Shown: one piece after another, positions 2,619 through 61,243 of the stretch
Layout of the letters: every line of letters begins with the position of its first letter
Numbering within the stretch: position 1 is the first letter of the stretch
Source of the DNA: a virus
Taxonomy: Duplodnaviria > Caudoviricetes
IMG/VR virus record: IMGVR_UViG_3300036850_000032
Location: 1-61,243 of that record
Length of the DNA: 61,243 nucleotides
Strand: one strand, 5' to 3'
Notes under the pieces: model-generated
The model's database searches: none
Seen by the model: only the letters and a program-made list of their open reading frames with translations
What the model was told of the DNA's origin: nothing
Translations under genes and position numbers: made by a program

Positions 2619-2621
2619 CCG

Positions 2622-3310: not shown

Positions 3311-3319
3311 AGGAACCCC

Positions 3320-36054: not shown

Positions 36055-37209
36055 ATGGCAGGTATCGAATCCAATTCCACCGTCCTCCCCCCGATCACCT
36101 CGGGCACCGCGGATAGCTGGTCCTTTGACTCGGCGAGTATCAGCGATCAATCCGAACCGCTCGGCACCGTGACGGAGCCGGAGCCCGGCGATCAGCCCGC
36201 GCCCGATGACGCCGAACTGGCCACCGAACCTGCCGCGCCTGCTGCACCGAAGGTGGAAGCGAAGCCTGAGGCCCCGGCACAGCCCAGTAAGAAGCGTCAG
36301 ACGATCACTGAGCGGACAAACGTCCTCAAGGCGGAACTGGCGCAAACACTGCGCGAGCGGGCACAGGCGCGTGAGGAACTCGCCGATCTGCAACGCCAGC
36401 GTGACGCCCTCCGCGGCGAAGTCGGACGCCAACCGGCACCGCCACGACAGGAGCCAGCCCGCTCGGCACCGCCGCCTGCGTCCACGCTCGGCCCGAAACC
36501 GGAGTGGGACAAATTCGAGGCTGACGGCAAGTCATGGAAGGAATACGAGGACGCCAAAGATGCGTGGCTGGAAGCCAAGGCCGAGGAAAAGGCCACGGCC
36601 CGCATCAAGAGCGAGATCGCGTCGATCGAAGATCGCCGTCTCTCTGACGCCCAGCGCGCCCGAGAGGCGGAGATCGCGCAGAGGTACGCCGCGAAGATGG
36701 ACGCGGTCCACGCCAAGTACCCCGACTTCGCGGCGCAAGTGGATGCGAATCTGGCCGGCGTGCAAACCTCTGGCTTCATGAAAGCCATTCTTGTGCATCA
36801 CGCACAGGGTGGCGAAGTGTTGTATCATTGGGCGCGGCATCCGCATCAAGCCGAAATCATCGCGACCTTCCGGCCCACGAGGCCGATCATGGACGCGGTG
36901 GCGACGGCCGAGGATCCGATTCCGCTCTTATCTCACTTTGCCGAGCATCGGGCAGAGTTCGAGGCGCTGACACAGATGCCTCCGGCCAGACAACTCCTCG
37001 AGTTGGGCCGCCTCCAACAGCGACTTGAGGGTGCCTCGCGCACGTCCGACCCGCCCTCACGGTCATCGGTGAAATCTCCGGCACCTCCCTTCCGGGCGAT
37101 GGGCGGTACGGCTGCGGCGGTCAGCGACAGCTCCGAGACCACAGGCGATGACTTCGCGGATTGGGTCCGCGCAGAGAATCGCCGGCAAGCGCAGAGAGCA
37201 GGTCGTTAA
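36055..37209 (+). CDS. scaffolding protein
   Basis: Between portal and coat; acidic/Pro-rich N-terminus, coiled-coil, KYPDF, G.EVLY.., ELGRL. Confidence 0.8.
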   Translation: MAGIESNSTVLPPITSGTADSWSFDSASISDQSEPLGTVTEPEPGDQPAPDDAELATEPAAPAAPKVEAKPEAPAQPSKKRQTITERTNVLKAELAQTLRERAQAREELADLQRQRDALRGEVGRQPAPPRQEPARSAPPPASTLGPKPEWDKFEADGKSWKEYEDAKDAWLEAKAEEKATARIKSEIASIEDRRLSDAQRAREAEIAQRYAAKMDAVHAKYPDFAAQVDANLAGVQTSGFMKAILVHHAQGGEVLYHWARHPHQAEIIATFRPTRPIMDAVATAEDPIPLLSHFAEHRAEFEALTQMPPARQLLELGRLQQRLEGASRTSDPPSRSSVKSPAPPFRAMGGTAAAVSDSSETTGDDFADWVRAENRRQAQRAGR

Positions 37210-45050: not shown

Positions 45051-45797
45051 ATGACAGCAGATGACATTTCTACGCGGGCGTTGCGGCTGATTTCAGTCTA
45101 TGAGGCCAGCGAAACGCCTCCGAATGCGGATCTGGCTGAAGCCTTCGTTGTGCTCAATGAGTGGGTCGGCGAGCTGGGCACGTTGTCACCGACGATGTAT
45201 TTCCTGCTCCGTACCTTACACGTGTTGGCGAGCGGAACCGCGAGCTACACCATTGGGGCGGGGGGTACCATCAACATCCAGCGACCGACGTTTCTCCCGA
45301 AGGGCAACGCCAAGCTGATCATCGACAACACGGCGGCGGCGACGAGCATTACCGAAGTGCCGTTGGACGTGTTTACCGATCAGGAGTGGAAGGACATCCC
45401 GCAGAAGGGCTTCCAATCCTCGCAATCGCAAGGGATCTGGTACGACCACAACTGGTCCGCGGGGTTGGGCCGGATCTACCCGTGGCCCATTCCGAACGTC
45501 GCCACCACCACACTGGTGCTCTACACCATGCAAGCGCTCGCGGCCTTCGCGGATCGGAACACGACAGATTACACGTTCCCGCCGGGGTATGCGCGGGCGA
45601 TCCGCTACAACCTCGCGGTGGAGCTCGGGCCGATCTTCGAGCGGGACGTGCCGCCGCAGGTGGAACGCATCGCGATCAAGTCTCTCGCGGACATCCAGCG
45701 TGCGAACTTCCGCAAGACCTCGGCGGGGATGGATCCGGCGTTGTCCTGGAACTGGCGCGGCTCGGCCTATGCGATTCGCAGTGACACATTCAGATAA
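45051..45797 (+). CDS. head completion / P22 gp4-like adaptor
   Basis: D...RAL.LI.V...E.P...LN.W; FPPGY..A..YNLA.EL.P. Confidence 0.7.
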   Translation: MTADDISTRALRLISVYEASETPPNADLAEAFVVLNEWVGELGTLSPTMYFLLRTLHVLASGTASYTIGAGGTINIQRPTFLPKGNAKLIIDNTAAATSITEVPLDVFTDQEWKDIPQKGFQSSQSQGIWYDHNWSAGLGRIYPWPIPNVATTTLVLYTMQALAAFADRNTTDYTFPPGYARAIRYNLAVELGPIFERDVPPQVERIAIKSLADIQRANFRKTSAGMDPALSWNWRGSAYAIRSDTFR

Positions 45798-47278
45798 TGG
45801 CCCGCTACCCCGCGTTTGTCGGCGGCTCCTACGTCTCGCAAAGTCCGATTGCGGATCAGCAGAGAACCGTCTGTTTTTACGTTGAGCGCTTGGAAGTTGA
45901 AGGTGGCAAGGCGCGCATGGTGCTGTACCCGTCGCCAGGCGTCGAAGCCTTCACGGCTGAGTTTGAACTCGCCCCAGCTCGAGGAAGCTTTTACCAGAAC
46001 GGCCGCTGTTTCTTCGTCATTCGCGATCGGCTCGTAGAAGTGTTTGACGATGGCACTCTGAACGGACTCGGCTCGGCCGGTCAGATGGTGCTGGATGGCT
46101 ACCCGGTGACCATGTCCGCCAATGGGGACGGCGGTGGCGAGTTGTTCATTACCACGGGCAACAACGGCTACATCTTCGATCTCCTCCTCAACTCCCTGGC
46201 GATTGTGCGCACCGGAGCGACGACTCAGGGCGGGATGCTCGACGGCTATTTCATCGCGCTCGACGCCGCGACATCCACGTTCTTTCTCTCGGATTTGCTG
46301 GATGGGACGACGTGGGATCCGACGCAGTTCGCGCAACGCACGATCGCCCCGGATGCGTGGGTCGCGATGACGGTGATGGACACGGCGCGGCAGTTGTGGC
46401 TGTTCGGGGATGAGACCTCGGAAGTCTGGTACAACGCCGGCACGTTCCCGTTTCCGTTCGCCCCGCATCCCTCGGGATTGATTCCGTTCGGCATCGCCGC
46501 GCGGTCCTCGCCGAAGAACGTCGGCGGTGCGCTGATGTGGCTGTCTCGCACGAAGGGCGGGAGTGGGCAAGTCATCAGAGCAGACGGGTTGAATGCGCGC
46601 GTGGTGAGCACCTACCCGATGGCGGTCGCGTTTGAGCGGTATCTGAGCACCTACGGACAGATGGCGCTGGATGATGCGGTCGGTGATGCGTTCGAATGGA
46701 TGGGGCACTGGTTCTACGTGCTGACCTTCCCCACGGCGAATGGGACATGGGTCTATGACCGCTCAACGGAAACATGGGTGGAGTGGCTGACGTGGATCGC
46801 GAATGAGAACCGCTACACCGGCTGGCGTCCGCTGTTTCATGTCAATGCGTTCGGTCAGCACTTGGTGGGCGATCGGCTGAGCGGGACCGTGTATCGGCTG
46901 GACGCCACGATCGGCACCGATGTCGCGGGCTTGCCGATTCGTCGGGTGCGCCGTGCCCCGGCACTCTCAATGGAAGGGCAGCGGATTTTCTACTCCAGTT
47001 TGGAGCTGTGCTTGGAGCCGGGCCTCGGCCTGAACAGCGGGCAGGGCTCGGATCCGCAGGTGATTCTCTATTTTTCTGATGATGGCGGAAAGACCTGGAA
47101 ATCGGCAGGCCAGCGCTCAGCCGGTCGCATGGGTGAGTATCAAACACGTGTGATTTGGAACCGGCTGGGCAGTTCAAGGGACCGCGTTTTCGAGGCAGTT
47201 GTTACCGACCCGATCCCCTGGCGCTACATTGACTGCTTTCTGACCGCGAAGCCTGGAATGTCTCGGAGAGTGGCCTAG
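45797..47278 (+). CDS. P22 gp10-like tail hub (packaged DNA stabilisation) protein
   Basis: DGYFI, LWLFG..T.EVWYN.G, GH.FYVLTFP, DPQV.L..SDDGG.TW, G..GEY.TRV.W.RLG.SRDRVF. Confidence 0.88.
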   Translation: MARYPAFVGGSYVSQSPIADQQRTVCFYVERLEVEGGKARMVLYPSPGVEAFTAEFELAPARGSFYQNGRCFFVIRDRLVEVFDDGTLNGLGSAGQMVLDGYPVTMSANGDGGGELFITTGNNGYIFDLLLNSLAIVRTGATTQGGMLDGYFIALDAATSTFFLSDLLDGTTWDPTQFAQRTIAPDAWVAMTVMDTARQLWLFGDETSEVWYNAGTFPFPFAPHPSGLIPFGIAARSSPKNVGGALMWLSRTKGGSGQVIRADGLNARVVSTYPMAVAFERYLSTYGQMALDDAVGDAFEWMGHWFYVLTFPTANGTWVYDRSTETWVEWLTWIANENRYTGWRPLFHVNAFGQHLVGDRLSGTVYRLDATIGTDVAGLPIRRVRRAPALSMEGQRIFYSSLELCLEPGLGLNSGQGSDPQVILYFSDDGGKTWKSAGQRSAGRMGEYQTRVIWNRLGSSRDRVFEAVVTDPIPWRYIDCFLTAKPGMSRRVA

Positions 47279-48507: not shown

Positions 48508-49298
48508 CCGCCACTCTTGATCGTCCGATCGTCTCTCCGCGCCGCGTCTACACGTTGCCGCCGCTCTCGATCGGTATCGGTCGGACGATGGATGCTGCGC
48601 ACCTGAACCGTGTCGCGAATCATCCTGCGGTGCGGCCGTGGCTTGGCGGAGATGGCGTGCTGGATCTGACGGCGCTGATCACGAACCCCGACAACATCGC
48701 GGTGGTCTCAGAGCATGGCGGGTTTATCGGGGTGGCGCAAGCCTACGGCCGCTATGAGGTGCATTCGCTGTTCACGCCAGATCGTCCGGGCGCGGAGACG
48801 ATGCAGGCCATGCGCGCGGGCCTTGATTTCATGTTCACGGCGACGGACTGTCTGGAGTTGGTCACGAAGGTTCCGCAGGACAACCGTGCCGCAGCAGCGC
48901 TCGCGCTCAGGGCTGGATTTGAGCAGCGGTGGACAGCTCCGCTGAAGTGGACGGATGGACAGATGGTGACGGCGGACTTTCTCGGGCTAACGCTGGAGCG
49001 GTGGGCCTTGCGCTCGCCGCAGACGCCAGTGCTGGGGGAGTGGTTCCATCATGCGGTCGCGTGTCCTGAACATCCAGACGATCCCGTGCATGACCGTATC
49101 GTCGGTGCCACGGCATGGATGCTGAGCGCCGGCAATTTACGCAAGGCGGTGGAGTTCTACAACGGCTGGGCGCGGCTCTCTGGGTACACGCCCGTGATCG
49201 TCCTGCGTGATCAGCCGATTGTGCTGGATGTGGACCGCGTGATCCTCGAATGTCGCGCGACCGAGATGGAGGTGTTGTCATGCCCGCAGGAGCAGTAA
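48504..49298 (+). CDS. GNAT-like acetyltransferase (P22 gp14/DUF2824-like)
   Basis: N.VANHP.V.PW, YEVH..F, .T.VP..N.AA..LA..AGF. Confidence 0.7.
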   Translation: MTATLDRPIVSPRRVYTLPPLSIGIGRTMDAAHLNRVANHPAVRPWLGGDGVLDLTALITNPDNIAVVSEHGGFIGVAQAYGRYEVHSLFTPDRPGAETMQAMRAGLDFMFTATDCLELVTKVPQDNRAAAALALRAGFEQRWTAPLKWTDGQMVTADFLGLTLERWALRSPQTPVLGEWFHHAVACPEHPDDPVHDRIVGATAWMLSAGNLRKAVEFYNGWARLSGYTPVIVLRDQPIVLDVDRVILECRATEMEVLSCPQEQ

Positions 49299-50152
49299 TC
49301 GCCGCCGCTATCACCGCAGGCGCAGGCACAGCAACCGCCGTCCACGGGCGCCGAGCGCAGACACGTGCGGGCCGTCAAGCCGCGAAGTACACCGAAGCCG
49401 CCGCGAGCCAGGCCACGCGGATCGAACAGGATGCCGAAACCCGCCGCCGCGAAGAGTACGAGCGCGAAACCGCCGAGGAACAGCGCCGCCATGAAGCCGA
49501 GCAAGCGCAACTCATGGAAGATCGGCGACTCGCGCAGGAGGACCGTCTCCGCGCCCAGCGGCTCGAGGAAGAGGATCGCCGCCTGCGTGATGAGGATCGC
49601 CGCATTGCCGAAGAGGAACGGCAGCGCAACATCGCGATCTGGAATGAACGCGAAGCCCGTCTGGCTCCGTATCGACAAGCCGGTGCAGGGGCACTCTCGG
49701 AACTGCAGCGGCTCGCGGGACAGAGCGGCGGCGCGGCACCTAGTGCTGGCCCGCGGCCGATGCCAGAAGGCTGGACGCCAGACGCAAGCGCCCAGACGAG
49801 TGCCGCGCCGCCCGTGTCGGATCTGCCGACGACCGCCAGCCGGGCCTCGCTGGAGTCCTATACCAGCAGCTTGCCGGTGACACGCGATCGATCGCTGGCG
49901 CAGGAGATGGGCGAACCAGAGCCGCCGATGGACGAACCGATGAGTGGTGCCCTGTCGCAGATGCGGCAACCGGCGGAAGACGTGAACTACCTGCTCGACA
50001 ACCCGTCCACGATGTCCCCGGAGGCGTATCGGCGCTTGGTGCAGGCCCAGGGTGGGGAAGGCGATCCTGATGCGATGCCCCTGTCCATGATGCGCCAGCC
50101 GGTCTGGGCGAATCGTCGCCGGCCATATCGCCGATCGGAGGCGAGAGCCTGA
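49280..50152 (+). CDS. ejection protein (P22 gp7-like)
   Basis: GGAGG RBS; Ala/Gly-rich N-terminus, coiled-coil, LAPY.QAG.GAL..L. Confidence 0.7.
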   Translation: MPAGAVIAAAITAGAGTATAVHGRRAQTRAGRQAAKYTEAAASQATRIEQDAETRRREEYERETAEEQRRHEAEQAQLMEDRRLAQEDRLRAQRLEEEDRRLRDEDRRIAEEERQRNIAIWNEREARLAPYRQAGAGALSELQRLAGQSGGAAPSAGPRPMPEGWTPDASAQTSAAPPVSDLPTTASRASLESYTSSLPVTRDRSLAQEMGEPEPPMDEPMSGALSQMRQPAEDVNYLLDNPSTMSPEAYRRLVQAQGGEGDPDAMPLSMMRQPVWANRRRPYRRSEARA

Positions 50153-51288
50153 TGGCGTGGCGTGACGAACTCTACAACCCGTATCGCGAAAGCGTGCAGC
50201 GTCTGCGGCTGCCGAGTCGTCCGTCGACGCTGGCCAACTGGCGCGATCCGACGCAATTCAGGACACTGATTTCAGACGAGGGGAACTCGCCGCCTGGAAC
50301 CACCCCGCCGCCGCCGACCACGCCGCCTGGGAACACGACTCCTCCGCCCAACCCGCCGAACCGCAACGACCCGAGCACCTCGCGGAATGCCCCTCGCCTG
50401 ATTCAAGAAGGCGATCGGTGGATTCTAACCGAGCATGGGAATCGGCGTGTCCTGCAGCCCGACGAAGTGCCCGGCGCGCAAGCGTACGTGGATGATTTCT
50501 GGCGACAGTTCCCGACCGGATTCCAACCAGGTCAAGGCCCGCAGACCAACGAAGGGTATGGGCCGCCCGGAGAAAACACGCCACCGCAAGGCGGGCGCCG
50601 TGTAGGACTGACGGGGCGTGAGCAGTTCGATCCCACGGCTGGCTTCGATTTGGACAACTTCAATGATCTGACCAATCAGAATTTGAAGTACCGCGCCGGC
50701 CGTATCTTGTCGCGGTATCCGGCCACTTCACAAGGTGTTCGTCAAGCCATGCAAGATCCCGAGTGGCTGGCGGATGCGGATCTGTCGCGGGCCACGTTTA
50801 ACGGCCGCGATCGTATTCACTTCCACGGGGCGCTCAGTGACGGAGAGTCAGGCGTTCCGGTCAATGAAGTCGATGTCCTCCGCTCCAATCAAGAAGATGG
50901 CAGCTCAGTTGGCCTCTGGTGGGGCGATCAGGATGCGATGGGCTATGGGAGCGGCGCACCGCCCACGACACCGACGACACCGACAACACCGACGACCGGC
51001 GGCGGTACGCGCGTGCTTCCGGATGGCACGATCGAACGTCCGGCTCAAACCATCCCAGAAGAGGGCACGCCGTTCCCCGGCGGCGGGAATCGGCCAATGG
51101 GCAATCTGTCAGGGATGCGCGATCCCGCCACTGTCTTTGGCGCGCAAGGGGCCTCAGTGGTAGGCAGCAATGCCCCGCAGCAGCCGCAGATTTCTCAAGA
51201 GCCCTATCGCAAGCTCGTCTCGCCGCTTGGGGATGGCCTGATGCCCCTGAATGAGTATGCGTGGCTCGGTCGCCGGAGGACGGCGTAA
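50152..51288 (+). CDS. putative ejection/internal virion protein
   Basis: TGATG-coupled within the ejection cluster; low-complexity ends with a central globular domain. Confidence 0.6.
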   Translation: MAWRDELYNPYRESVQRLRLPSRPSTLANWRDPTQFRTLISDEGNSPPGTTPPPPTTPPGNTTPPPNPPNRNDPSTSRNAPRLIQEGDRWILTEHGNRRVLQPDEVPGAQAYVDDFWRQFPTGFQPGQGPQTNEGYGPPGENTPPQGGRRVGLTGREQFDPTAGFDLDNFNDLTNQNLKYRAGRILSRYPATSQGVRQAMQDPEWLADADLSRATFNGRDRIHFHGALSDGESGVPVNEVDVLRSNQEDGSSVGLWWGDQDAMGYGSGAPPTTPTTPTTPTTGGGTRVLPDGTIERPAQTIPEEGTPFPGGGNRPMGNLSGMRDPATVFGAQGASVVGSNAPQQPQISQEPYRKLVSPLGDGLMPLNEYAWLGRRRTA

Positions 51289-53570
51289 TGGCCTCACCGC
51301 TCGCCACTCCAGGGGCGACACTCAGGCGTCCCTCCACAGGCTATGAGGAGGATGAGTACTACAAGACGCTGCCCGATCAGATCGGCGGTCCGACAGGCAT
51401 CCCGCAGATTGGCCAGATCGCGGGACTGGACGGCACGTCCGCGCCGGGGGTCTCCCTGTGGGGCGATCCGCAACAGATGCGCGGCGGATCGACGAGCGAC
51501 GCTCAGCGATCGGCTGACGGCGGGGGGAGCGGTCAGAATCTCGGACGGCCGCAGACCGGCACCAGTCCGCAGACGACGAACCTGATCGCGGAAGCGGCGC
51601 GGCTGACGGGCAATCCTCCTCCCGAGGAGCAACGTCCGCCCGGCGTTTTTGCGCAAGCCCCACATATCTCCGCTGGTCGGACCGACATTGAAAGCCCTGT
51701 CGGGATGCAGACCGGAGGGACGGTGCAGCCGCACGCGCTCCCCGCGGCCTCTGGTCAGTTTGCGGCGGTTGATCCGGGAGGCGTCTACACGCCAGAGGAC
51801 GCCTTGGCGCTGCTCGAGCAGCGGGCCGGCCGCGCGTTATCACCAGAGGAGCGCACGGCGGCGATTCAGGCCAGTGGATGGAATCAATCTGGCTCCCTCA
51901 CGGGCGCACACATCAACAGCATCCTGCAATGGGGTGCGGGTGCAATGGGCGGGCAGTTTACGCCGTGGGGCGGCAGTGGAGGCCAGCCGCCCCCACCAAC
52001 ACGGCCGCCGAGCCCCACCGGCACCTACACACCGGAAGACGCCGAAGCCCGCGCCCGCGAACGCTTCCGCGGCCGGTTCAATCGTGATCTGACGCCGCAG
52101 GAGTGGACAACGCTCCTCGCACGGGTGCCGGGGTTCCAGCCGGGCCAGCCGATCTCACAGGCGCAACTGGATGAAGCCTTCCGGCTGATCGATGAGTATG
52201 GCGGCACGCTGCCGGGCGGTGGTGGTGGAGGTGGTCCTGTCGCCCCGCCGCCGCGTGCGCCCGTGCCGCCGCCCTCTGCGCCAACGGGTGGGCCACGGGT
52301 GCCCTACGAGCCGTATACGCCCACCCCGCGCACGCCGATTCCGCCAGCGGCACCCTATCAAGCGCCGACTACACCGTGGGGGCCAGCGCTGACCTCGAAC
52401 GTGACGCCTGCGCCGGAATTTCGGGCACCCGAGTATCGTCCGCCCCCGGCGTATCGGGCACCGGATCCGTTCTCGTACGAGGACTACACCGCGCCGGCGC
52501 CGTTTCAGTACGACCCCTATCAGGCGCCAGCGGCGTTTCAATATGCTGACTATCAGGCTCCGGAGAACTTCGCGTTCCGCGAGCATGAGGCCCGGCCCGA
52601 GTTTGTCGCACCGACATGGGATGAGATCCAGAACGACCCCGGCTATCAGTTCCGTTTGCGGGCGGGCACGCAAGCGCGTGAGCAATCCGCTGCGGCCGGA
52701 GGCGTCCTGCGCACGGGCGGCACCTTGAAGGGCTTGGAAGACTACGCACAGGGGCTGGCCAGCCAAGAATACGGCAATGTGTACAACCGCCGAGCCAGCG
52801 AATGGGATCGCGCGAACGCCGCGAACACGGAAGATTACACGCTGGATCGCGACACCGCACGCGGCACATGGGATCGCAATACGGCGCTCGGCCAATCCGC
52901 CTACGACCGGAACCGGGCCGGCGCCGAATCCGCTTGGGATCGGAATACCGGCCTCGGCGAACGGGCCTACGAACGCAATCGGGCTGGCGCCGAACGCGCC
53001 TACGATGTCAACGCCGCCGCAGGACGCTACGCCCACGAAACCAACCGTGCCGGGGCTGAGCGGGATTACGACCGCAACACCGCAACCGGCCGGTATGCCT
53101 ACGAGACCGCCGCCGATCGTGCCGATCGGGAATACGCCGCCGCCTTTCAAGGCGCACAGGCGGAATACGATCCGCGGTTTGCCGGATGGCAGGCACGGAC
53201 GGCGGCGGATCAACGCACGGGCGAGCTCAATTTCGATCGCCAGCATCAGCAGGCCCTCTACGATCGGGATGACGCATGGCGTCAGTACGCGTTTCAGACG
53301 GGCATGGAACAAGATCGCTTGCGGTACAACAACCAAGCCGATTGGGAACGTGAAGTCTTCGGACGGCAGCAGGAAGTGGATCGCGCCCGTTACCTCGGGG
53401 ACGACGCGTACCGCCGCGAGCGCGACGCAAACGATCTAGAGCTTCAGAGGGCCATCAGAGGATCGGACGAAGCGTGGCGAGAATTTGTGAACGCACAAGA
53501 AAACGCCTGGCGGCGGGAAGAGTTAGAGGAGTCTAGGCGCAGATTTTTGATCGAAGTGGGGATGCGCTGA
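51288..53570 (+). CDS. putative ejection protein with 11-aa repeats
   Basis: DPGYQFR...G..A...SAAA.G.L..G.TLK.L..Y.Q.LASQEY.N.YNR motif of P22-like DNA-transfer proteins. Confidence 0.7.
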   Translation: MASPLATPGATLRRPSTGYEEDEYYKTLPDQIGGPTGIPQIGQIAGLDGTSAPGVSLWGDPQQMRGGSTSDAQRSADGGGSGQNLGRPQTGTSPQTTNLIAEAARLTGNPPPEEQRPPGVFAQAPHISAGRTDIESPVGMQTGGTVQPHALPAASGQFAAVDPGGVYTPEDALALLEQRAGRALSPEERTAAIQASGWNQSGSLTGAHINSILQWGAGAMGGQFTPWGGSGGQPPPPTRPPSPTGTYTPEDAEARARERFRGRFNRDLTPQEWTTLLARVPGFQPGQPISQAQLDEAFRLIDEYGGTLPGGGGGGGPVAPPPRAPVPPPSAPTGGPRVPYEPYTPTPRTPIPPAAPYQAPTTPWGPALTSNVTPAPEFRAPEYRPPPAYRAPDPFSYEDYTAPAPFQYDPYQAPAAFQYADYQAPENFAFREHEARPEFVAPTWDEIQNDPGYQFRLRAGTQAREQSAAAGGVLRTGGTLKGLEDYAQGLASQEYGNVYNRRASEWDRANAANTEDYTLDRDTARGTWDRNTALGQSAYDRNRAGAESAWDRNTGLGERAYERNRAGAERAYDVNAAAGRYAHETNRAGAERDYDRNTATGRYAYETAADRADREYAAAFQGAQAEYDPRFAGWQARTAADQRTGELNFDRQHQQALYDRDDAWRQYAFQTGMEQDRLRYNNQADWEREVFGRQQEVDRARYLGDDAYRRERDANDLELQRAIRGSDEAWREFVNAQENAWRREELEESRRRFLIEVGMR
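52800..53130 (+). repeat. degenerate 33-bp (11-aa) coding repeats
   Basis: AYDRNRAGAES / AWDRNTGLGER / AYERNRAGAER / DYDRNTATGRY etc. Confidence 0.75.
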
Positions 53571-55057
53571 TGGCGGCTGGACCTGTGCCATTCGTGCGAC
53601 GGCGGTACGACGATACCGCCCACACCAATCGCCTGAGTGACATGCTCAGATGGCGAGGCGATCAGGCCGCGCAAGCCGCGATCCGTCAAGGCGAGAACTC
53701 CGCGCAGTTGTGGGGCGATGTCGGGAACATCATCGGGCAGACGGCGCAGACGATCAGTCGCGAGCGGGCAGAACGTCCGCAACGGGAACGCGAGCAACGC
53801 GAACAGGAGCGCGCGGATAAGTTGCAAACGGTGCTCTCTGAGGTGGGATCTCTGCCGCCGGAGCAGGCCATTCAGCGCGTGCGCGCGGCTGGATTCGCGG
53901 CGGAAGCCAATACGCTCCAGAAGCAATACGACGATCAAGTGCTTAATCGCCTGCAGCGCGAGAATACCACGCTGGATCTGGCAAGTAAGCGGATCTCGCA
54001 GGCGCGCACGATGTTCGAGGAAATCAACGCGGCACCTGAGGAGGAGCGGCCGGCGATCTATCAGCAGATTGCCCCGCGTGTGCGCGAACTGGTTGGCCCT
54101 GAACTCGGATCACGCGTGAAGGATGAATACGATCCGCAATTCGTTGAACGGGCGATGACGTGGGGGATGTCCACCGTCGAGAAGCTGAACACCCGTCGTG
54201 CGGCGATCGGATTGGTGACTGAGGACACGAAGAACGCCGACGAACGCGACGACAAGGCGCGTCAGGCACTCATTCAATACCTGCCCACGGTTGATACGCA
54301 GGAGGAATTGGATCAAGCCCTGTCGATGGCGAAAGCGCGCGGGGCACGGCCGGAGACGCTCGCGCTGTTCCCGTCGAAGTACTCCCCAGAGGCTATGGCG
54401 CAAGTCAATGAGATCGGCCTGACACCGGAGCAGCGCGCGAAACGCGAGGAAGGCGCGGCGCCAGAGAGTGAACGCGCCTTCATCGAACGGGCCGCGCGTG
54501 AACAGGGGCGGCCGGTCGCCAGTTTCAACAACAACGAGATTGGCCGGCTCAAGGCCCAATTCGCCAGCTTGTCGCGCGCGCCGAAGGATGACGGCGGTAT
54601 CACCCAAGCGCAGCGCATGGCCGCGGAGCGGTGGAAACAGAACGAATTGCAACAGGCAGAGGATGATTTCCGCAAGGCCACAGCTCCGTACACGATCGAC
54701 CCGGATTCGAAGTTACCGATTGCCCAGCCGATGGCGCTTCCACAGGATTTGATCGATCAGCACGAGGCCAGGAAGCGGCGCATCCAGTTATCGTATCTGG
54801 AGCAGATCGGGGACACGTCCACGGGCCGTCCGACTGCGCTGCCGAATCCGCCAGCCGCTCCCACGCCGCCGCCCGTGCGTGCCGCGGCCGAGCCTCCGCC
54901 ATCTGCGCCAGTAGCCCCGGCTGCGCCACTTGGGGCGGCGCCAGCGAATGCAGCCTCTCCGTACACGGTCGGGCAGGTCGTGTCGGTGCGTGGGCAGCGT
55001 GTCCGCATCACGAAGATCAACCCGGACGGCTCGTTTGAAGGCGAGCGCGTGCCCTGA
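53570..55057 (+). CDS. putative ejection protein (gp20-like position)
   Basis: Helical, Gln/Glu/Arg-rich; TGATG coupling at both ends. Confidence 0.6.
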   Translation: MAAGPVPFVRRRYDDTAHTNRLSDMLRWRGDQAAQAAIRQGENSAQLWGDVGNIIGQTAQTISRERAERPQREREQREQERADKLQTVLSEVGSLPPEQAIQRVRAAGFAAEANTLQKQYDDQVLNRLQRENTTLDLASKRISQARTMFEEINAAPEEERPAIYQQIAPRVRELVGPELGSRVKDEYDPQFVERAMTWGMSTVEKLNTRRAAIGLVTEDTKNADERDDKARQALIQYLPTVDTQEELDQALSMAKARGARPETLALFPSKYSPEAMAQVNEIGLTPEQRAKREEGAAPESERAFIERAAREQGRPVASFNNNEIGRLKAQFASLSRAPKDDGGITQAQRMAAERWKQNELQQAEDDFRKATAPYTIDPDSKLPIAQPMALPQDLIDQHEARKRRIQLSYLEQIGDTSTGRPTALPNPPAAPTPPPVRAAAEPPPSAPVAPAAPLGAAPANAASPYTVGQVVSVRGQRVRITKINPDGSFEGERVP

Positions 55058-58000
55058 TGCCGCAGACGTTTCGCTTTACCGCCAGTGAGATCGACCCGCC
55101 GGCCCCGCCGCCCAGCTCGCGGTTTGTGTTCCGTGCCGAAGACATCGACGTGTATGATCCGCTGGATGATCCGTTTGCCATTCGGGCGCGTGATCCCGAT
55201 CCTGTTCCTCGCCCTATATCTCCTCCTCGTGTAACCCCGCCGCCGATGCGGATGGTGTCCTCGCACCGTCCGCCAGGAGCTGCCGGGAACGACCTTCAAT
55301 CGGCACTCCGACAGGTCTTGCCGGCGATGGCGGTCTCGCACGAGACGCAGCCTGAACCCGATCCGGCTGCCGCGTTCTCACGCGCCACTGGGATCAGCGC
55401 ACAACCACAGCGCAGCGTGTTGGACATTGCTGCAAATGCCCCACGGGCCGCTGCTGCTGGCCTCGTACGTGGGAATCAGGCGGTATGGGGAGGATTGCGA
55501 GCCGCGGCAGATGTCCTCGGGTTGGACTCCGTTGCCGAGTGGGCACGCGCGGCCGGTCAAGGCGCGACCGAGCTTGCGGAAACAGTGAGAGGCCCGCAGA
55601 CGGGCGCCAGCCCCACGGAGCAGGCGGTGCTCGGCGGCTTCGAGTCCATCGGGGCGTCTGCGCTGCCTCTGGCGGCTGGTGTGGTCAGTGGTCAGCCGTC
55701 AGTGGCCCTCGGCATGATGGGCGCGCAGACGGGCGGAGAAGCCTACCAGCAGGCGCGCAATGCCAAGGTCAACACGCCGGAGGCGCTCGCGTTTGCCGTG
55801 TCGCAGGGCGCGGTGGAAGTTGCCACCGAGCGGATTCCTGCCGGCCGATTGCTCGGCGATCTGGCGAAGCGGACAGGATTGCTCAAGACCATCATCCGGC
55901 AGGCCACCGCCGAGATTCCGAGTGAGCAGATCGCCACGGCTCTGCAAGACCTGAACGAGTGGGCCACGTTACAGCCGGACAAGCCGCTGTCCGCGTATCT
56001 CGAGGAACGCCCCTCTGCCGCCGCACAGACGCTCATCTCCACGCTGGTGGCGACGATTGGGCAGACGGCTGCATCGGCTGGTGTGGAACGTGTGACACGT
56101 CCACGCGAGCGTGTGCAGCCTTCCTCTCCGGCGGCGATAGTGCCTGCGCCCATCGTGGAGTCGCGTCCTTCGCCCGTGGCTCCGATTGCGCCGCCTGTTG
56201 CCGCCGGACCTTCGACTGTCGCGCGCCTCACCGATGCGGCTCCTGTTGTGGAACCTGCCCCACCGTTGGGCGTGGTGTCATTCACGGCGGATCAGATTGA
56301 TCAGCCGATCGTGGCGCCGTCGATCGTGGAACGGGCGCAGCAGATGCGAGCGGAAGATCCCACCATCGACGCCAGAGCGCGTGAGATGGCGGAACGTGCG
56401 CGAGCGGCGAAGGTGTCGGTGGTGGAGCCAGAAGGCGCGCAACTTATCGCAGCGATCGAAGACTTGTCGGCCGAACTTGATCAGCCGTATGGCGATCGTG
56501 ATGTCCTAGCCGGACTGCTGGATACCGACCCGGAGGACTTCTCGGCGTCCGATGTGCAGCTGCTGCGCGAGGTGTTGGCCGACCTACAGGACCAACAGGC
56601 CAAGCGTGGCGTGTTACGACAACTCAGTCCACAGGAGGAACCCCGTGCCCTTGAAACCCGGCAAGAGTCAGAAAGTCGTGAGCCAGAATATTCGGGAACT
56701 GAAAGCGAGCGGCAGGCCGCAGAAGCAGGCCGTGGCGATCGCCTTGAGCAACGCCCGTCAGCACCCGTCGCCGAAGAAACGCCGGTAGCGCGGGCCGTTA
56801 TTCAATCCGAGATTGACCGTCTCACAGAAGAGAATGCGCGTCTCGCCAAAGGACCGCCACCACTGCGGCCCAAGAAGCGCACCGCTACGCCTGTCGTGGA
56901 ACGCTCGCCCTCGGTGGATGAGTCACGAATCACCCCGTCAGAGCCGCCGAGTATCGCGGGCCTGATCGAGCTGAAAGAGGCTGAAGTCACCAGCGGCGCG
57001 CTGGCGGAGACGCCAGCATCGGCCGCCGCCGAAGTCCGCGCCGAAGTTGGCCGCGTCGTGGATCTCCGTGGCGTCAAAAGCGCCGCCGATGTGCAACGCC
57101 GTGTTGTCGCGACGCTGACCGAGGAATTGGAGCACGCGAAGGTTGGCGCCCCAGTGTTGGAAGTACGCCCGCAAAAGGCGTACGGCGGACGGGAGTTTAC
57201 CGTGTTTGCCGATGGTGAGCCGCTGGTGATGGTGGATCGCTACGGCCACATGAAAGCCTCCTACGGGGTGGATGACGACCGCGTCAAGGCGCTGAGTGGT
57301 GCGCCTGTTGCGCTCGGTCGGACGGGCGACAAAGCCTCGCTGGGGCAGATCGATCGCGCGAAGGACATGTCAAAGCCAGAGTTATACCGCTATGCGCAAG
57401 CGGAAATCTCGCGACGGCTGGGACAGCAGCGCGGCACCGTCACGGTACAGATTCCAGGCGATGGCACCTTCACGATCAATCGGACGCCGGAGGCCGTCTC
57501 AGAAGTCTTGCGGCGGATTACGAAAGCCGGTGTGTCGCCGTGGAAGGGGTTGAAGGGTGAAGGGCCTCCCCCGCTTAGGAAGTCGATTCCAGGTGTGACT
57601 CCGATCACGGATGTCGTAGCAACTCCGGAGCCAGTGAGCACAGAACCGACAGTCCGCAATCCTGGCTTTATCCCGCGCGGCGAGGTGCGCGTGGTTGAAC
57701 CGAAGCCACAGAAGATCGCCACAGAGCCGACCGGAGGACCGCCCGGCGTCTCGCTCAACGACATTCCGATGGACTTGGCGATCCGTGCCCACTCCGGCAC
57801 CTCGCATACGCCGGAGGTGCGCGCCAAGAGCGAACAAGAGGGCTATGTCTCCCACATGACCCACGTCTGGAACGAGATACAAAAGCTTGCGAAGACTGAT
57901 GAGCAGAAAGCCATCGCACGCGCGGAGTTTGCCCGCTACCGCTCCGGGTATCTCGAACGGAACCGCGCCTACATGAGCGCGCGCAGTGGCGTCGTCAGCG

Positions 58001-61000
58001 CGTACATCGCCGGGCCGAGCAAGTTTCCCAGCCGGCAGATGGAGAAGCGGAACAACGCCGTAGACAAGCGCCGGAACGAGTTCGTGGAGTGGGAACAGCG
58101 CGCGCTCCGTGCGATGCGAGAAGCCATCGAGCCAAGTGTGGCCCGAAGCATTTCCTCGGATCGCTCCGATGCCGTCGAAGCCTTACAGGCAAAGATTGAC
58201 GCAGCAAAGAAGCAACAGGAGTTGATGCGCACCGTCAACGCCATCGTGCGCACGAAAGCGACCGACGCGGAGAAGATCGCGAAGATTACCGCTGCGACAG
58301 GTTTCAAAGAGGCCACCGCCGCGAAGCTCCTTGAGCCTGATTTCATGGGTCGCAAGGGCTTCCCAGACTACGAACTGACGAACAACGCCGCCAACATCCG
58401 GCGCATGGAAGCGCGCATCGGCGAGGTGTCCGCGCAGAAGGCCAAGCCCGAAGGCGAAGCAATGTTTGACGGGGGACGTGTCGAGGAAAACGCCAGCCTG
58501 AACCGCATCCAGATTTTCTTCGACAGCAAACCTGATGAAGCCACGCGCGACAAACTGAAGGCTAACGGCTTTCACTGGTCGCCGCGTGAAGGAGCGTGGC
58601 AGCGGCAGCGCAACGACGCAGGACGAGAGGCCGTTCGGAAGGTGCTCGGCGTCACGCTCGGCGAGCGAGTGGCATCAGGCGAACCTGAGGGGGCCGTTGC
58701 CAAACTCCAAGCCGTCGAAGATGCCGCCAAAGCCCGCATCAAGGACCGAGGCACATTCAAAGGCAGCCGTCTCACCGCCGGTCTACCTGTCGACGACATC
58801 GCCGATCTGGTCATCATCGGTGCCGCCCGGATCGCGAAGGGCACGGTGCAGTTCGCGCAGTGGTCTGCTGAGATGGTGCGCGACTTCGGCGACGCCATTC
58901 GTCCGCACCTCCAAACCATCTACGACCGCGCCAAGGTGAAAGCCGCCGAGTTCGGCCCGCGTCCGATCCTGGCCGACACTGGCCGGGACATCCCCGATCA
59001 GCAGCGGTTGCCGAAGGACCGCGTCCTCGCGTTCCCCAGCCTGCAGAAGATGCCGGAGGCGATCCGCGGCGACATCGCGGACATGCTGGAGCGCTACAAC
59101 GGTTTCGAGACACAGCGGCGCGGCGTGCAACCGATTGCCCGCACGCAGGAGATTGCGAAGGATCTGTGGCTCCCGCTCGAAACGCTGAAGCCTGGCACCG
59201 CGCTCAACGCGGAGGAACTGGAAGCCTACAAGACCGCCCTCGCCACGGCACTGACCGAACGGCAGAAGGTGCTGGAGAAGATCAAGGACGGCACGGCCAC
59301 CGATTGGGATCGGCTCCAGTTCTCGCATCTGACAGACGTGGCGACGATCCTGACTGCGAGTTACCGCGGGGCGAAGGCGGAAGCCGGACGCGCGCTCAAC
59401 ATCCTGCGGGTGAAGGCGCGCGTGCTGGACTTGCAGGAATCGCGGTTCCTCGAAGCCGCCTTGAAGGCGCCCGGTTTCCAGAGCGACATCAGCGCGGTCG
59501 CGAAAGCCGCAACTGAGGCCGAAGGCGATCCGCTCGCCCAGCTCAGGCTGCTCCGCAAGCGTGCGGCTGGGAACTGGTTTGATCTGGTGCAAGCCGCGTA
59601 CTACACGAATCTGCTCTCCGGGCTCAAGACGCATCTGCGCAACGCGATCGGTAACAGCTTCAACACGTTTGCCAACACGATCGCGCCTATCGGTGGAGCG
59701 GCGGCGGACATCGTGCGCGCGACAGCCACGGGCCAGCCGCGAACCGTCTTCATCGGGGAGATCCGCGAGAACTTGGCTGGCGGATTCATCGGGCTCGATC
59801 GCGGGATGAAGAATGCCGCGTTCACGTTCCGGGAAGGGTTTCGGCCGAGCACCGTCGAATCAGCCGCAGGAGGCGTGTTCGATACCCCTCGCGTCGAATT
59901 ACCCGGAGGGGTCTGGACGAACTGGCCGAGCCGCGCCTTGGAAGCGGCCGACGAGTTCTTCCGCGCCATTGCCTATCAGCAGGAATTGCACGCCGGCGCC
60001 TACGCCGACGCTCGAGGAGAAGGACTCCGCAAGCCTGATGAGATTCACGCACGCATGGCCGAACTGATGACGGCTGTGGACGGGGAGGACGGGAAGACGT
60101 TCGCCGAGCTCCGCGATCGGGCGCAGACCTTCGCGGCCCGAGCGGTGTTTCAGGAAGAGCCGGGGCCGATCGTCAACTGGCTGCTGAAAGCCAAGGCGCC
60201 AACCTCGCCCATCCCGTTGAGAGCCGCGGCGTTGTTCGTCTCGCCGTTCATCAAGACCCCCTCAGCCATTCTTAGGCAGGGCGCGGAGTGGTCTCCGGTG
60301 GGCTTTGTCATGAAGGGCGCCAAACAAGGCGGACGGGAAGGCGCACAGGCTCTTGGACGGGCGGGACTGGGAACTGGGTTCATTCTCGGCCCGCTGGCAT
60401 GGTTCGCCGCGAATGGGCTGCTGACGGGCGCTCCGCCTGATGACGAAGGCGAGCGGGAGGAGTTCTACGCACAAGGCAAGCTCGGCAACGCCATCAAGAT
60501 CGGCGAGTACTGGGTCCGCTACACGCTGTTCCAGCCGTATTCGGTGTCGATGGCGGCGGTGGCAAATGCGTGGCAGCAGTTTCAAGAGTCGAAACAGGAC
60601 GAGACGGCGGTGGCCGAAGCGTTTGCTGGTGCGGTGGCCGGTGCTGGCGCGTCGTTATTGGATCAGTCGTTCCTCGCCGGACTCGGCACGGTGATTGATG
60701 CAGTCAACGATCCGCAACGGTACGCGGGCCAGTGGCTCAGCCTGTTCGTGCAGGGCCTTGTCCCCTACAGCGGGGCGATGCGGAACATTACGCAAGCGAT
60801 CGATCCGGTGGTGCGGAAACCATCCGGTGTGGCCGAGAGTGTGCAGGCGATCATTCCGTGGATGTCTTCGTCACTCCAGCCCAAACGGACACGGTTCGGC
60901 GAGGCGGTCACACGGCCCGGATCGGCCGTACAACGCGGATTCATCGTGCCAGAAGTGTCGAAGGCCGTGAGTGATGACGTGACGACGATCCTCGCACGGT

Positions 61001-61243
61001 TGCAGATCCAGCCGACAACCCCGCGGGCACGCTTCACCGTGAACGGCAAGCCCGTCGAGTTGACACGGGAGCAGCAGGACATCGTGACCGAAGCGATTGG
61101 CCGCGAACGGAAAGCCACCATTGAACGCGTCATCTCGTCGCCATTCTTCAAGGGTTTGAAGGATGAGTCGCAGCGGGCAGGATTGGAGCGGGCGATCAAC
61201 AGTGTCACGGATCGTGTCCGGCCGAACGTGATCCGTACACTAG
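55057..61243 (+). CDS. giant internal virion / large polyvalent protein (>2060 aa, runs off end; not in ORF track)
   Basis: Frame 1 from ATG 55057 appears stop-free to the window end; DUF3560-like domain (~57760-58650: GFP.YELTNN.ANIRR, R.QIFFD.KP, GF.WSP..GAWQR) and LPD38-like C-terminal region (PFIKTP, G.LTG..P, IKIG). Confidence 0.8.
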   Translation, partial: MPQTFRFTASEIDPPAPPPSSRFVFRAEDIDVYDPLDDPFAIRARDPDPVPRPISPPRVTPPPMRMVSSHRPPGAAGNDLQSALRQVLPAMAVSHETQPEPDPAAAFSRATGISAQPQRSVLDIAANAPRAAAAGLVRGNQAVWGGLRAAADVLGLDSVAEWARAAGQGATELAETVRGPQTGASPTEQAVLGGFESIGASALPLAAGVVSGQPSVALGMMGAQTGGEAYQQARNAKVNTPEALAFAVSQGAVEVATERIPAGRLLGDLAKRTGLLKTIIRQATAEIPSEQIATALQDLNEWATLQPDKPLSAYLEERPSAAAQTLISTLVATIGQTAASAGVERVTRPRERVQPSSPAAIVPAPIVESRPSPVAPIAPPVAAGPSTVARLTDAAPVVEPAPPLGVVSFTADQIDQPIVAPSIVERAQQMRAEDPTIDARAREMAERARAAKVSVVEPEGAQLIAAIEDLSAELDQPYGDRDVLAGLLDTDPEDFSASDVQLLREVLADLQDQQAKRGVLRQLSPQEEPRALETRQESESREPEYSGTESERQAAEAGRGDRLEQRPSAPVAEETPVARAVIQSEIDRLTEENARLAKGPPPLRPKKRTATPVVERSPSVDESRITPSEPPSIAGLIELKEAEVTSGALAETPASAAAEVRAEVGRVVDLRGVKSAADVQRRVVATLTEELEHAKVGAPVLEVRPQKAYGGREFTVFADGEPLVMVDRYGHMKASYGVDDDRVKALSGAPVALGRTGDKASLGQIDRAKDMSKPELYRYAQAEISRRLGQQRGTVTVQIPGDGTFTINRTPEAVSEVLRRITKAGVSPWKGLKGEGPPPLRKSIPGVTPITDVVATPEPVSTEPTVRNPGFIPRGEVRVVEPKPQKIATEPTGGPPGVSLNDIPMDLAIRAHSGTSHTPEVRAKSEQEGYVSHMTHVWNEIQKLAKTDEQKAIARAEFARYRSGYLERNRAYMSARSGVVSAYIAGPSKFPSRQMEKRNNAVDKRRNEFVEWEQRALRAMREAIEPSVARSISSDRSDAVEALQAKIDAAKKQQELMRTVNAIVRTKATDAEKIAKITAATGFKEATAAKLLEPDFMGRKGFPDYELTNNAANIRRMEARIGEVSAQKAKPEGEAMFDGGRVEENASLNRIQIFFDSKPDEATRDKLKANGFHWSPREGAWQRQRNDAGREAVRKVLGVTLGERVASGEPEGAVAKLQAVEDAAKARIKDRGTFKGSRLTAGLPVDDIADLVIIGAARIAKGTVQFAQWSAEMVRDFGDAIRPHLQTIYDRAKVKAAEFGPRPILADTGRDIPDQQRLPKDRVLAFPSLQKMPEAIRGDIADMLERYNGFETQRRGVQPIARTQEIAKDLWLPLETLKPGTALNAEELEAYKTALATALTERQKVLEKIKDGTATDWDRLQFSHLTDVATILTASYRGAKAEAGRALNILRVKARVLDLQESRFLEAALKAPGFQSDISAVAKAATEAEGDPLAQLRLLRKRAAGNWFDLVQAAYYTNLLSGLKTHLRNAIGNSFNTFANTIAPIGGAAADIVRATATGQPRTVFIGEIRENLAGGFIGLDRGMKNAAFTFREGFRPSTVESAAGGVFDTPRVELPGGVWTNWPSRALEAADEFFRAIAYQQELHAGAYADARGEGLRKPDEIHARMAELMTAVDGEDGKTFAELRDRAQTFAARAVFQEEPGPIVNWLLKAKAPTSPIPLRAAALFVSPFIKTPSAILRQGAEWSPVGFVMKGAKQGGREGAQALGRAGLGTGFILGPLAWFAANGLLTGAPPDDEGEREEFYAQGKLGNAIKIGEYWVRYTLFQPYSVSMAAVANAWQQFQESKQDETAVAEAFAGAVAGAGASLLDQSFLAGLGTVIDAVNDPQRYAGQWLSLFVQGLVPYSGAMRNITQAIDPVVRKPSGVAESVQAIIPWMSSSLQPKRTRFGEAVTRPGSAVQRGFIVPEVSKAVSDDVTTILARLQIQPTTPRARFTVNGKPVELTREQQDIVTEAIGRERKATIERVISSPFFKGLKDESQRAGLERAINSVTDRVRPNVIRTL
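56645..56788 (+). CDS. nested small basic phage protein (47 aa) in +1 frame
   Basis: AGGAGG at 56633-56638, GTG 56645; MPLKPGKSQKVVSQNIRELKASGRPQKQAVAIALSNARQHPSPKKRR matches a common small phage protein pattern. Confidence 0.75.
   Translation: MPLKPGKSQKVVSQNIRELKASGRPQKQAVAIALSNARQHPSPKKRR

Follow-up and report, generated by a model that had tools for sequence, protein, structure and literature searches.

Can a giant phage gene carry a second, complete gene out of frame within its own coding sequence and, if so, how did that gene get there? The question is raised by a 47-aa open reading frame (ORF) inside a giant virion-protein gene of an uncultured virus (IMG/VR record IMGVR_UViG_3300036850_000032), analyzed here as a window of 61,243 nucleotides. 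Judged from the sequence, the stretch probably encodes two proteins. The best explanation, which we consider likely, is that an intact gene of the phrog_2423 family was inserted in a linker of the giant gene, that two products result and that the nested frame is under selection.

Read directly from the plus strand, the small ORF runs from GTG at 56645-56647 to TAG at 56786-56788, and a 6-nt spacer (AACCCC, 56639-56644) separates the GTG at 56645 from AGGAGG at 56633-56638 (Table 1). It lies in the host +1 frame ((56645-55057) mod 3 = 1), across host codons about 530-578. The longer ORF is uninterrupted and the small one lies wholly inside it in another frame, which makes them a nested same-strand overlapping pair. 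The preliminary description had quoted this motif, spacer, GTG and +1-frame peptide, within a host frame said to stay open as a low-complexity linker. Direct reading reproduces the peptide, with the GTG-encoded V taken as M; all 2062 host codons are free of stops, the small ORF is truly nested, and the host reading of the shared bases is an E/R/S/Q-rich run. AGGAGG alone occurs at chance level in the window (25 matches observed, 24.9 expected); none of the 24 other gene starts compared in the window has an upstream motif as strong as the one before the nested gene. The initiation region (-30 to +30) folds at an MFE of -8.1 kcal/mol; 407 windows along the host ORF average -17.9 (sd 4.6), and just 1.2% of them are as weakly folded. 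The nested gene is the one phrog_2423-family copy in this virus record.

Table 1 Features of the nested locus (positions in the window).
Feature	Position	Strand	Basis or remark
Host gene, giant internal-virion / polyvalent-like protein ORF	55057..61242	+	Stop-free for at least 2062 codons; 3' end beyond the window
Weakly structured translation-initiation region	56615..56674	+	MFE compared with host-ORF windows
Shine-Dalgarno (SD) motif AGGAGG	56633..56638	+	6 nt 5' of the nested start codon; read directly
Nested gene, 47-aa phrog_2423-family protein, predicted two helices and basic tail	56645..56788	+	Profile match, invariant columns, codon usage
Host-frame reading of the nested bases, low-complexity acidic linker, residues about 530-578	56645..56788	+	Translation, codon-position GC

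The peptide matches the phrog_2423 profile with an E value of 3.6e-17 (63.1 bits), residues 2-45 falling on profile positions 2-45 of 52, and because this match runs end to end the ORF is far beyond chance. The preliminary description had assigned the peptide to a widespread family of small basic phage proteins that are usually free-standing near packaging genes, and the searches bear this out. Short relatives of 25-83 aa number 836 at E ≤ 0.001, the best of them 84-87% identical, tblastn with the peptide returned 138 phage records, and a gene-neighborhood survey agrees that family members are mostly free-standing, often in head or packaging modules. All 15 invariant columns of a 44-sequence alignment are kept (P2, L3, K4, G6, N15, I16, E18, L19, G23, Q26, Q28, A29, V30, A31 and A33), and the nested GTG aligns with family residue M1; among 190 family copies examined, 180 start with ATG and 7 with GTG. 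The peptide tail (...PKKRR) fits the family trait of an 'MPL' start and a basic C-terminal tail in a protein of roughly 40-60 aa. Pfam DUF6496 (PF20106) is a distant likeness, not membership, as it reaches 17.2 bits (E 0.0069; gathering cut-off 24 bits) over residues 25-40 only; a literature search for DUF6496 found no paper mentioning the name. An AlphaFold2 model of the peptide (pLDDT 86.7) has helices at 9-22 and 26-39. Foldseek found no PDB structure matching this hairpin at E ≤ 0.001, and no functional clue came from a profile search of PDB sequences (designed helical repeats only) or from the ESM Atlas (DUF6496 and hypothetical-protein clusters only).

Codon usage changes frame at the same place. 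A classifier of reading frame, trained on codon usage in the genes of the window and applied in 96-nt windows, chooses the +1 frame over 56641-56784 (two windows), and the host frame in every window of the immediate flanks (56209-56688 and 56737 onward), where the host frame leads by 9-26 log units just upstream (56209-56688) and by about 5-23 downstream. The classifier also leaves the host frame in a few upstream P/A-rich low-complexity stretches (55153-55296, 55441-55536 and 56113-56256). At its own codon positions 1/2/3 the nested gene has a GC content of 0.58/0.46/0.81; at the host codon positions of 56641-56784 the values are 0.81/0.60/0.48, the reverse of the normal coding pattern. The host frame would be open across the insert because host codon position 1 falls on the GC-rich third positions of the small gene. 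Upstream of the GTG, the +1 frame translates to a Cys/Trp/Arg-rich sequence of non-coding look.

The surrounding gene closes the structural module, 3' of the portal, scaffold, major head and ejection-protein genes. Host-frame PHROG matches flank the nested gene on both sides (phrog_9880 at aa 189-346 and phrog_19458 at aa 975-1198), and aa 1765-1921 match phrog_6651, 'internal virion protein'. The preliminary description had called the giant protein polyvalent, a label that we could not establish: a Pfam search of the protein gave no family above cut-off and no LPD or effector domain, and LPD22 and GGDEF are carried only by its relative at locus L017. A search for relatives of the giant gene gave 19 loci in viral, 8 in metagenome and 4 in genome collections; none exceeds about 50% identity, and the similarity is confined to the N-terminal domain. 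Only one of them, L017 (on the same contig as L227), contains the small gene. A search for close relatives of the window in viral, metagenome and genome collections found none.

These distant relatives bear on how the small gene arrived. A single open frame of at least 2000 codons is present in 19 of 23 host-gene relatives; 3 of the others are cut by contig ends and 1 has a closed frame of 432 codons. Since the giant ORF is already single, at about 2000-2460 codons, in relatives that lack the small gene, the comparison points to insertion into a linker rather than to the fusion of neighboring genes, and we reject, for this host family, an origin in which the genes on either side of the small one became joined through it. 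The small gene is found nowhere in the records of 8 other relatives (6 of them 100% complete), and is thus dispensable for the phage group. The earlier wording of a 'captured' gene fits these data. The locus has no flanking direct repeat or insertion scar, just short repeats at chance level. The nested copy in L017 is degenerate (19 bits, phrog_2423 E 0.0017, several invariant residues lost), which indicates that nested copies can decay. Whether a host-type frame can stay open across the small gene varies with the GC content of the gene: among copies with a GC of at least 0.58 it is open in 48 of 99, compared with 4 of 45 copies at 0.50-0.58 and none of the 46 with a GC under 0.50.

The layout is not confined to this record. 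Same-strand nesting recurs in seven other loci, all GC-rich and always with the small gene in host frame + 1: L037, L104, L125, L144, L161, the fragment L158 and the diverged copy in L017. In the first six, coding-like GC3 is seen on both sides of the nested copy. The hosts fall into at least five ORF groups unrelated by BLAST, namely the window with L017, L037, L125 with L158 and L144, L161, and L104; the L125 host has an ART-PolyVal match just below cut-off. Nested copies elsewhere likewise begin at family residue 1 on a start codon of their own, in most cases preceded by an SD, and end at their own stop. By the same folding measure, the share of windows as weakly folded as the start region is 0/346 at L125, 0.5% at L144, 5.7% at L161, 11% at L037 and 29% at L104, and was 23% at L123, which was later rejected as a nested case. 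L123, L149 and L214 were rejected since the 'host' frame 5' of the small gene has non-coding codon-position GC, and L187 since its small gene stands at the very start of an 893-codon open frame and at another offset. Long open frames in GC-rich DNA can mislead, as L123, L149 and L214 illustrate. We found no description of the present layout in the literature on polyvalent proteins, overlapping or nested genes and internal virion proteins.

Recurrence also allows selection to be read from sequence comparison. Over the first 120 nt, L125 and L158 differ at 17 nucleotides, which leave all 40 amino acids of the nested frame unchanged and alter 13 of the 40 read in the host frame. In 50-aa windows, the host proteins of L125 and L144 are about 8-28% identical, but 52-54% over the nested gene and 58% in the C-terminal window; the differences at nested codon positions 1/2/3 number 10/5/19. 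These comparisons show purifying selection on the nested frame in the L125/L158/L144 lineage. As no close relative of the window was found, we infer selection on its own copy from its intactness and from the other lineages.

Taken together, an intact phrog_2423-family accessory gene would have entered a giant internal-virion gene that already existed, landing in a disordered linker between domains and bringing its own ribosome-binding site, start and stop. By luck the host frame would have been stop-free across the insert, which let the insertion survive. Both frames would then be translated in this phage. Ribosomes on the giant gene would read the insert as roughly 48 added linker residues, and others would start internally at AGGAGG-N6-GTG, on locally unfolded late mRNA, to make a 47-aa two-helix basic protein. 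The frame of the small protein would be under selection, and the host frame need only stay open.

The copy could also be a recent passenger, newly inserted, unexpressed or unneeded, that is intact for lack of time and will decay. Its absence from all 8 other relatives' records would fit, as would the degenerate L017 copy (phrog_2423 E 0.0017), and the window has no close relative by which to measure selection on its copy. However, start, SD, stop and 15/15 invariant residues are intact, the initiation region is unstructured, the copy is the sole one in the record, and another lineage keeps nested copies under strong purifying selection across deep host-gene divergence; we regard a passenger as improbable. 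Recoding would instead join the small domain to the giant protein, by a +1 shift near 56640 (N-terminal 529 aa plus small domain) or by a -1 shift before the TAG (small domain plus C-terminal 1480 aa). Such products would mimic the in-frame fusions of the same domain (Obolenskvirus, L061, L173 and L170), but by-eye inspection of the sequences found a canonical slippery heptamer at neither junction. Each nested copy also begins at family residue 1 on its own start codon, mostly behind an SD, and has its own stop, signals that a separate gene requires and a frameshift product does not; we hold recoding to be very unlikely.

It is hardly credible that the layout is an assembly or annotation artefact, in which two genes flank a free-standing small gene and frame 1 is open by chance or through indel errors. 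Such openness does arise by chance (the 48/99 GC-rich copies), spurious long open frames occur (L123, L149 and L214) and host-frame GC1 exceeds GC3 in parts of the upstream linker. Yet with 2062 stop-free codons anything starting at 55057 must read through, codon usage is strongly host-frame up to 56640 and from 56737, the +1 frame 5' of the GTG looks non-coding (Cys/Trp/Arg-rich), the giant ORF is single in relatives and the layout recurs in independent assemblies. Finally, at 63% GC alternative frames often lack stops (7 kb hold 72 ORFs of 30 aa or more), and the small ORF could be a chance frame unrelated to any gene; the full-length profile match (E 3.6e-17) and the 84-87% identity to database proteins refute this, and we give it practically no weight. 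Insertion of an intact gene into the linker accounts best for the locus.

For the function of the inserted gene, gene context and in-frame fusions suggest that the phrog_2423 protein is a head-associated accessory protein. Family members occur after portal genes, with neighbor counts possibly inflated by one abundant phage clade, and as in-frame fusions on prohead proteases and polyvalent-like proteins. Prohead proteases of Obolenskvirus phages and of L061 carry the domain at the N terminus, as does a polyvalent-like protein of at least 585 aa in L173; in a 451-aa protein of L170 it is C-terminal. Named phages with a free-standing or fused copy include Pseudomonas PA11, Caulobacter phiCbK (gp338), Ralstonia RSB1 (gp47), Burkholderia BCSR129 and Acinetobacter phages like AP22. 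Contexts outside the head module are the tRNA array of phiCbK and the last gene of RSB1, at the genome end; these two fit poorly with the DNA-condensing core peptide that had been proposed. We set aside specific portal binding by inference, the protein being about 65% identical on average across phages with different portal families (phrog_1216 and phrog_156). A tentative proposal, for which we would not claim even odds, is a late-expressed, head-associated accessory protein that may bind a universal target such as DNA. More doubtful is the wider idea that phrog_2423 is a linker-dwelling cassette, an ancient, very strongly conserved gene that repeatedly colonizes disordered linkers of unrelated giant virion or polyvalent genes in GC-rich phages, as one of its own alternative frames, naturally free of stops, permits. 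Its product would be packaged in the head and co-injected, its target being universal, either DNA or some conserved machine of the host, and the nested position would couple its expression with that of the giant protein being injected. If true, this would reverse classical overprinting, with the embedded gene old and the host reading new.

Standard gene callers drop ORFs embedded in longer ORFs, and a family of hundreds to thousands is missed when nested; in this record, the only family copy would stay unannotated. Giant phage genes can apparently take whole foreign genes into their linkers without splicing, and GC content decides feasibility (host-type frame open in 48/99 GC-rich against 0/46 AT-rich copies). 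The locus would offer a clean natural example of constraint on the embedded frame and free drift of the host frame, a polarity opposite to that of textbook overprinting. With its extreme conservation across unrelated phages, portal-gene coupling and prohead-protease fusion, the family is a good target for functional work.

Same-strand embedded genes are familiar from lambda Rz1 inside Rz (+1 frame) and from phiX174 E in D and B in A, where both products come from one late mRNA and the embedded gene is thought to have arisen de novo, overprinting an older host gene. Here, likewise, a small gene lies wholly inside a longer same-strand gene in another frame, but the embedded gene is old and widespread (836 or more relatives) and the host-frame reading would be young and unconstrained. 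The window copy also differs from other phrog_2423 members, most of which are free-standing or N-terminal modules of longer proteins, in being nested out of frame. The internal proteins IPI-III of T4 are small proteins packaged in the head with capsid-targeting sequences. The phrog_2423 protein resembles them in being small and basic and in its apparent link to the prohead core, its module being N-terminal on Obolenskvirus prohead proteases; no relation in sequence or fold is known.

Polyvalent proteins of phages and conjugative elements, as described by Iyer et al. 2017 (PMC5512222), are similar in that the host here, too, is a giant multi-domain protein gene, placed at the end of the virion module. 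They are giant polypeptides with several effector or LPD domains, of which Pfam detects none above threshold in the giant protein of the window; a term search of that paper found no mention of out-of-frame genes within polyvalent genes. A close parallel is the 'ShiLan domain', in which hidden HNH endonuclease genes lie out of frame inside actinophage DNA methylase genes (Arsenault, Gosselin & Gogarten 2025, PMC11855218). This kind of hidden nested gene is thus already in print for HNH genes. The host there is a methylase gene (PMC11855218), here a giant virion-protein gene at which no homing signature or flanking repeat was found. In the methylase genes (PMC11855218), as here, the inserted gene is foreign and complete, has a start of its own (again GTG) and its own stop, and sits out of frame within a phage gene, whose own frame continues across it as a loop or linker with no stop and no splicing. 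The two differ in cargo: the methylase insert codes for a homing endonuclease, an activity that can account for the spread of its gene (PMC11855218), and the insert here for a 47-aa non-enzymatic basic protein.

The nested ORF lies in the +1 frame of the giant gene and covers its codons ~530–578, which translate to an E/R/S/Q-rich stretch. The preliminary description had an AGGAGG, a 6-nt spacer and a GTG opening a 47-aa +1-frame ORF within a host frame that stays open; our reading gives the same elements and the same peptide, and the host frame runs through all 2062 codons without a stop. The nested ORF is an intact and probably functional accessory gene that has been taken up into a linker of the giant virion-protein gene. 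The window spans an entire virus record (61,243 bp; estimated completeness 84%), and a podophage-like structural module, with the giant ORF at its end, fills the right half. PHROG matches flank the nested gene on either side, all in one frame of the giant protein, and a Pfam search of that protein gave no family above threshold.

Features of the nested gene, its host ORF and the structural module of the window
Feature	Position	Strand	Remark
Shine-Dalgarno AGGAGG	56633-56638	+	read in sequence
Spacer AACCCC	56639-56644	+	read in sequence
Nested ORF	56645..56788	+	GTG start 56645, TAG stop 56786-56788; 47 residues on translation
Host ORF	55057..61242	+	ATG start; 2062 codons, stop-free, exits window end
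Portal	33356-35755		structural module
Scaffold	36055-37209		structural module
Major head protein	37230-38624		structural module
Head-closure protein	45797-47278		structural module
Ejection-protein-like genes	49250-53570		just before giant ORF
phrog_9880 match	giant protein aa 189-346		host frame, N-terminal side of nested gene
phrog_19458 match	giant protein aa 975-1198		host frame, C-terminal side of nested gene
phrog_6651 'internal virion protein' match	giant protein aa 1765-1921		host frame, C-terminal side of nested gene

Membership in a family of small phage proteins, proposed in the preliminary description, is borne out by profile and BLAST-type searches: the peptide aligns over its full length with phrog_2423 (E = 3.6e-17), and 836 relatives (25–83 aa, E ≤ 0.001) turn up in a large protein collection, the best 84–87% identical. 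The match to Pfam DUF6496 is weak (17.2 bits, below the 24-bit cut-off), and the term 'DUF6496' was found in no paper of the literature searched. By tblastn, 138 phage records contain it, 79 of them from Acinetobacter, 19 from Caulobacter, 14 from Pseudomonas and the rest from others, and in a 44-sequence alignment with a mean column identity of 65% the window peptide keeps 15/15 invariant columns. AlphaFold2 predicts helices at residues 9–22 and 26–39 and a basic tail (pLDDT 86.7); Foldseek, PDB sequence profiles and the ESM Atlas gave no clue to function. A 46-aa phrog_2423 gene of Pseudomonas phage PA11 (L001, 4001-4140; E = 1.4e-20) is unannotated in its RefSeq record, and its start overlaps the 3′ end of ORF032.

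AGGAGG occurs in the window at chance frequency (25 versus 24.9 expected). The copy at the nested gene is stronger than the motifs 5′ of 24 other gene starts inspected in the window, and its spacing suits the codon aligned with family residue 1. The 60 nt around the start fold at −8.1 kcal/mol against a mean of −17.9 (s.d. 4.6) for 407 host-ORF windows, 1.2% of which fold as weakly. Upstream of the GTG the +1 frame is stop-free for a further 45 codons, with an ATG at 56552, and this extension gives a Cys/Trp/Arg-rich translation with no homology. A codon-usage frame classifier trained on the window's own confident genes favours the host frame by 9–26 log units directly upstream (56209-56688) and by ~5–23 log units from 56737 onward, and nowhere else nearby than in 56641-56736 and 56689-56784 does it favour the +1 frame. 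It also leaves the host frame further upstream, in P/A-rich low-complexity stretches (55153-55296, 55441-55536, 56113-56256). GC at codon positions 1/2/3 of the nested gene is 0.58/0.46/0.81 in its own frame, normal for this genome, and the pattern is reversed in the host frame. Each of the two frames looks coding in its own stretch.

The layout recurs. A family-alignment search of viral loci gave one nested case among 80 (L037, met again as L115), where the small gene lies +1 to a host ORF at least 3424 codons long and has an AAGGAG Shine-Dalgarno, an ATG start and a phrog_2423 E value of 8.7e-19. Scanning for the conserved core as spelt in GC-rich codons yielded 119 loci, 118 with a tblastn match; after filtering by codon-position GC, L104, L125, L144, L161 and the fragment L158 are clear nested cases besides L037. 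L017, which is related to the host gene of the window, contains a diverged nested copy (phrog_2423 E = 0.0017). L123, L149 and L214 were dropped, given that the 'host' frame upstream of the small gene is non-coding. The open frames across the small gene in L123 (118-2892, 925 codons; GC 0.87/0.65/0.45 by codon position) and L149 (7114-8829, 571 codons; 0.92/0.59/0.50) are a warning that very long spurious ORFs exist in such GC-rich phages. The small gene occupies the host +1 frame in every nested case, and BLASTP sorts the host ORFs into mutually unrelated groups: the window with L017, which have the N-terminal domain alone in common; L037; L125, L158 and L144; L161; and L104. The L125 host protein matches ART-PolyVal slightly below threshold, and that of L017 (5122-12510, 2462 aa) carries LPD22 (aa 45-126) and GGDEF diguanylate-cyclase (aa 716-828) domains, suggesting that the virion delivers a cyclic-di-GMP synthase.

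Of the small-gene copies, the host-type frame stays open over 48 of 99 with a GC of at least 0.58, 4 of 45 at 0.50–0.58 and 0 of 46 below 0.50. Stops begin with T and are few at this offset because host codon position 1 is the GC-rich position 3 of the small gene. Base composition is therefore enough to permit the arrangement, which accounts for the constant +1 offset and for the restriction to GC-rich phages, and the host frame need not be specially adapted.

Searches of viral, metagenome and genome collections gave no relative of the window closer than ~50% over one domain. Substitutions were compared by frame in L125 and L158, close relatives with 92.6% nucleotide identity across 1.5 kb: over the nested gene's first 120 nt, 17 nucleotide differences change 0/40 amino acids in the nested frame and 13/40 in the host frame. 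The distant host proteins of L125 and L144 are ~8–28% identical per 50-residue window, compared with 52–54% over the nested gene and 58% in a C-terminal window; their nested peptides agree at 48/57 aligned positions, and differences at nested codon positions 1/2/3 number 10/5/19. Both comparisons argue that selection acts on the nested frame in this lineage. The L158 and L125 contigs part abruptly (~1482-1683 versus ~2060-2300) from within the second half of the nested gene, in what looks like a recombination breakpoint, and the nested peptide is unchanged to codon 40 despite this.

The layout could have arisen by fusion of genes or by capture. Among 23 loci with the window's N-terminal host domain, 19 have a single open frame 2000 codons or more in length; contig ends truncate three, and the remaining one has a closed 432-codon frame. 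L017 alone among these relatives holds a copy of the small gene, a degenerate one, and the small gene was found nowhere in the whole records of eight others (six 100% complete). Relatives without the small gene already have a single giant ORF, so the giant gene was one ORF beforehand, and fusion is rejected as the origin in this host family. Capture, as originally proposed, fits these records: the small gene is an accessory one that entered the linker of an already single-ORF giant gene. No flanking repeats or other insertion scar were found around it.

Free-standing copies had been described as usually near packaging genes, and we find them mostly in late and head modules. In a survey of 79 loci (143 nearest flanking ORFs), which are not independent and whose counts one abundant clade may dominate, the upstream neighbour is the phrog_1216 portal in 20, its stop touching or overlapping the small-gene start in at least seven. 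Among the remaining neighbours are the phrog_156 portal (2 loci), large terminase (4), major head protein (2), scaffold/head-assembly proteins (4) and several tail proteins. The module is also found fused in frame. It supplies the N-terminal ~40 residues of true prohead proteases (DUF2213, phrog_2229/3778) in Acinetobacter Obolenskvirus phages and in L061, stands N-terminally in a polyvalent-like protein (L173, at least 585 aa) and C-terminally in a 451-aa one (L170), and in many contigs precedes an unnamed ~160–280-aa C-terminal domain that PHROGs and Pfam do not recognise. In the Obolenskvirus phages WCHABP1 (Acinetobacter; L235, 3001-4338) and fThrA (L236, 2501-3832) it forms the first ~38 residues of the annotated 'head maturation protease' (DUF2213), encoded directly 5′ of the genes for the minor and major head proteins, and is not marked as a separate domain. 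In the L173 fusion (2-1756, − strand) an ART-PolyVal-like domain has just begun where the contig stops, and the L170 partner (2282-3634) is a DUF7678 protein. The fusions to the unnamed domain (L038, L043, L044, L111, L133, L137; P0125, P0137, P0139) share a conserved '...KLPGPKKD'-like tail.

A DNA-condensing core peptide is a possible role. Two copies count against a strictly head-bound one: that of phiCbK, within an array of tRNA genes, and that of RSB1, the last gene of its genome. The former, the family member of phiCbK-like phages (Caulobacter phage phiCbK gp338; L239, 4001-4159), sits between tRNA-Asp and further tRNA clusters, outside any head module. The protein is very highly conserved even among phages whose structural proteins are unrelated, which suggests a universal target (DNA, for instance, or a conserved machine of the host) and argues against a phage-specific partner.

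Out-of-frame embedded genes are classical in phages, as in Rz1 within Rz and phiX174 E within D, where the embedded gene is thought to be young and overprinted. Out-of-frame nesting as such is already known, and the window holds a variant of that arrangement. Passages of the polyvalent-protein paper matched by term search do not mention out-of-frame genes (PMC5512222). The closest printed case is a hidden out-of-frame HNH endonuclease within actinophage methylase genes, in which the host gene reads through stop-free (PMC11855218); there the cargo is a homing enzyme, whereas in the window it is a phrog_2423 small protein.
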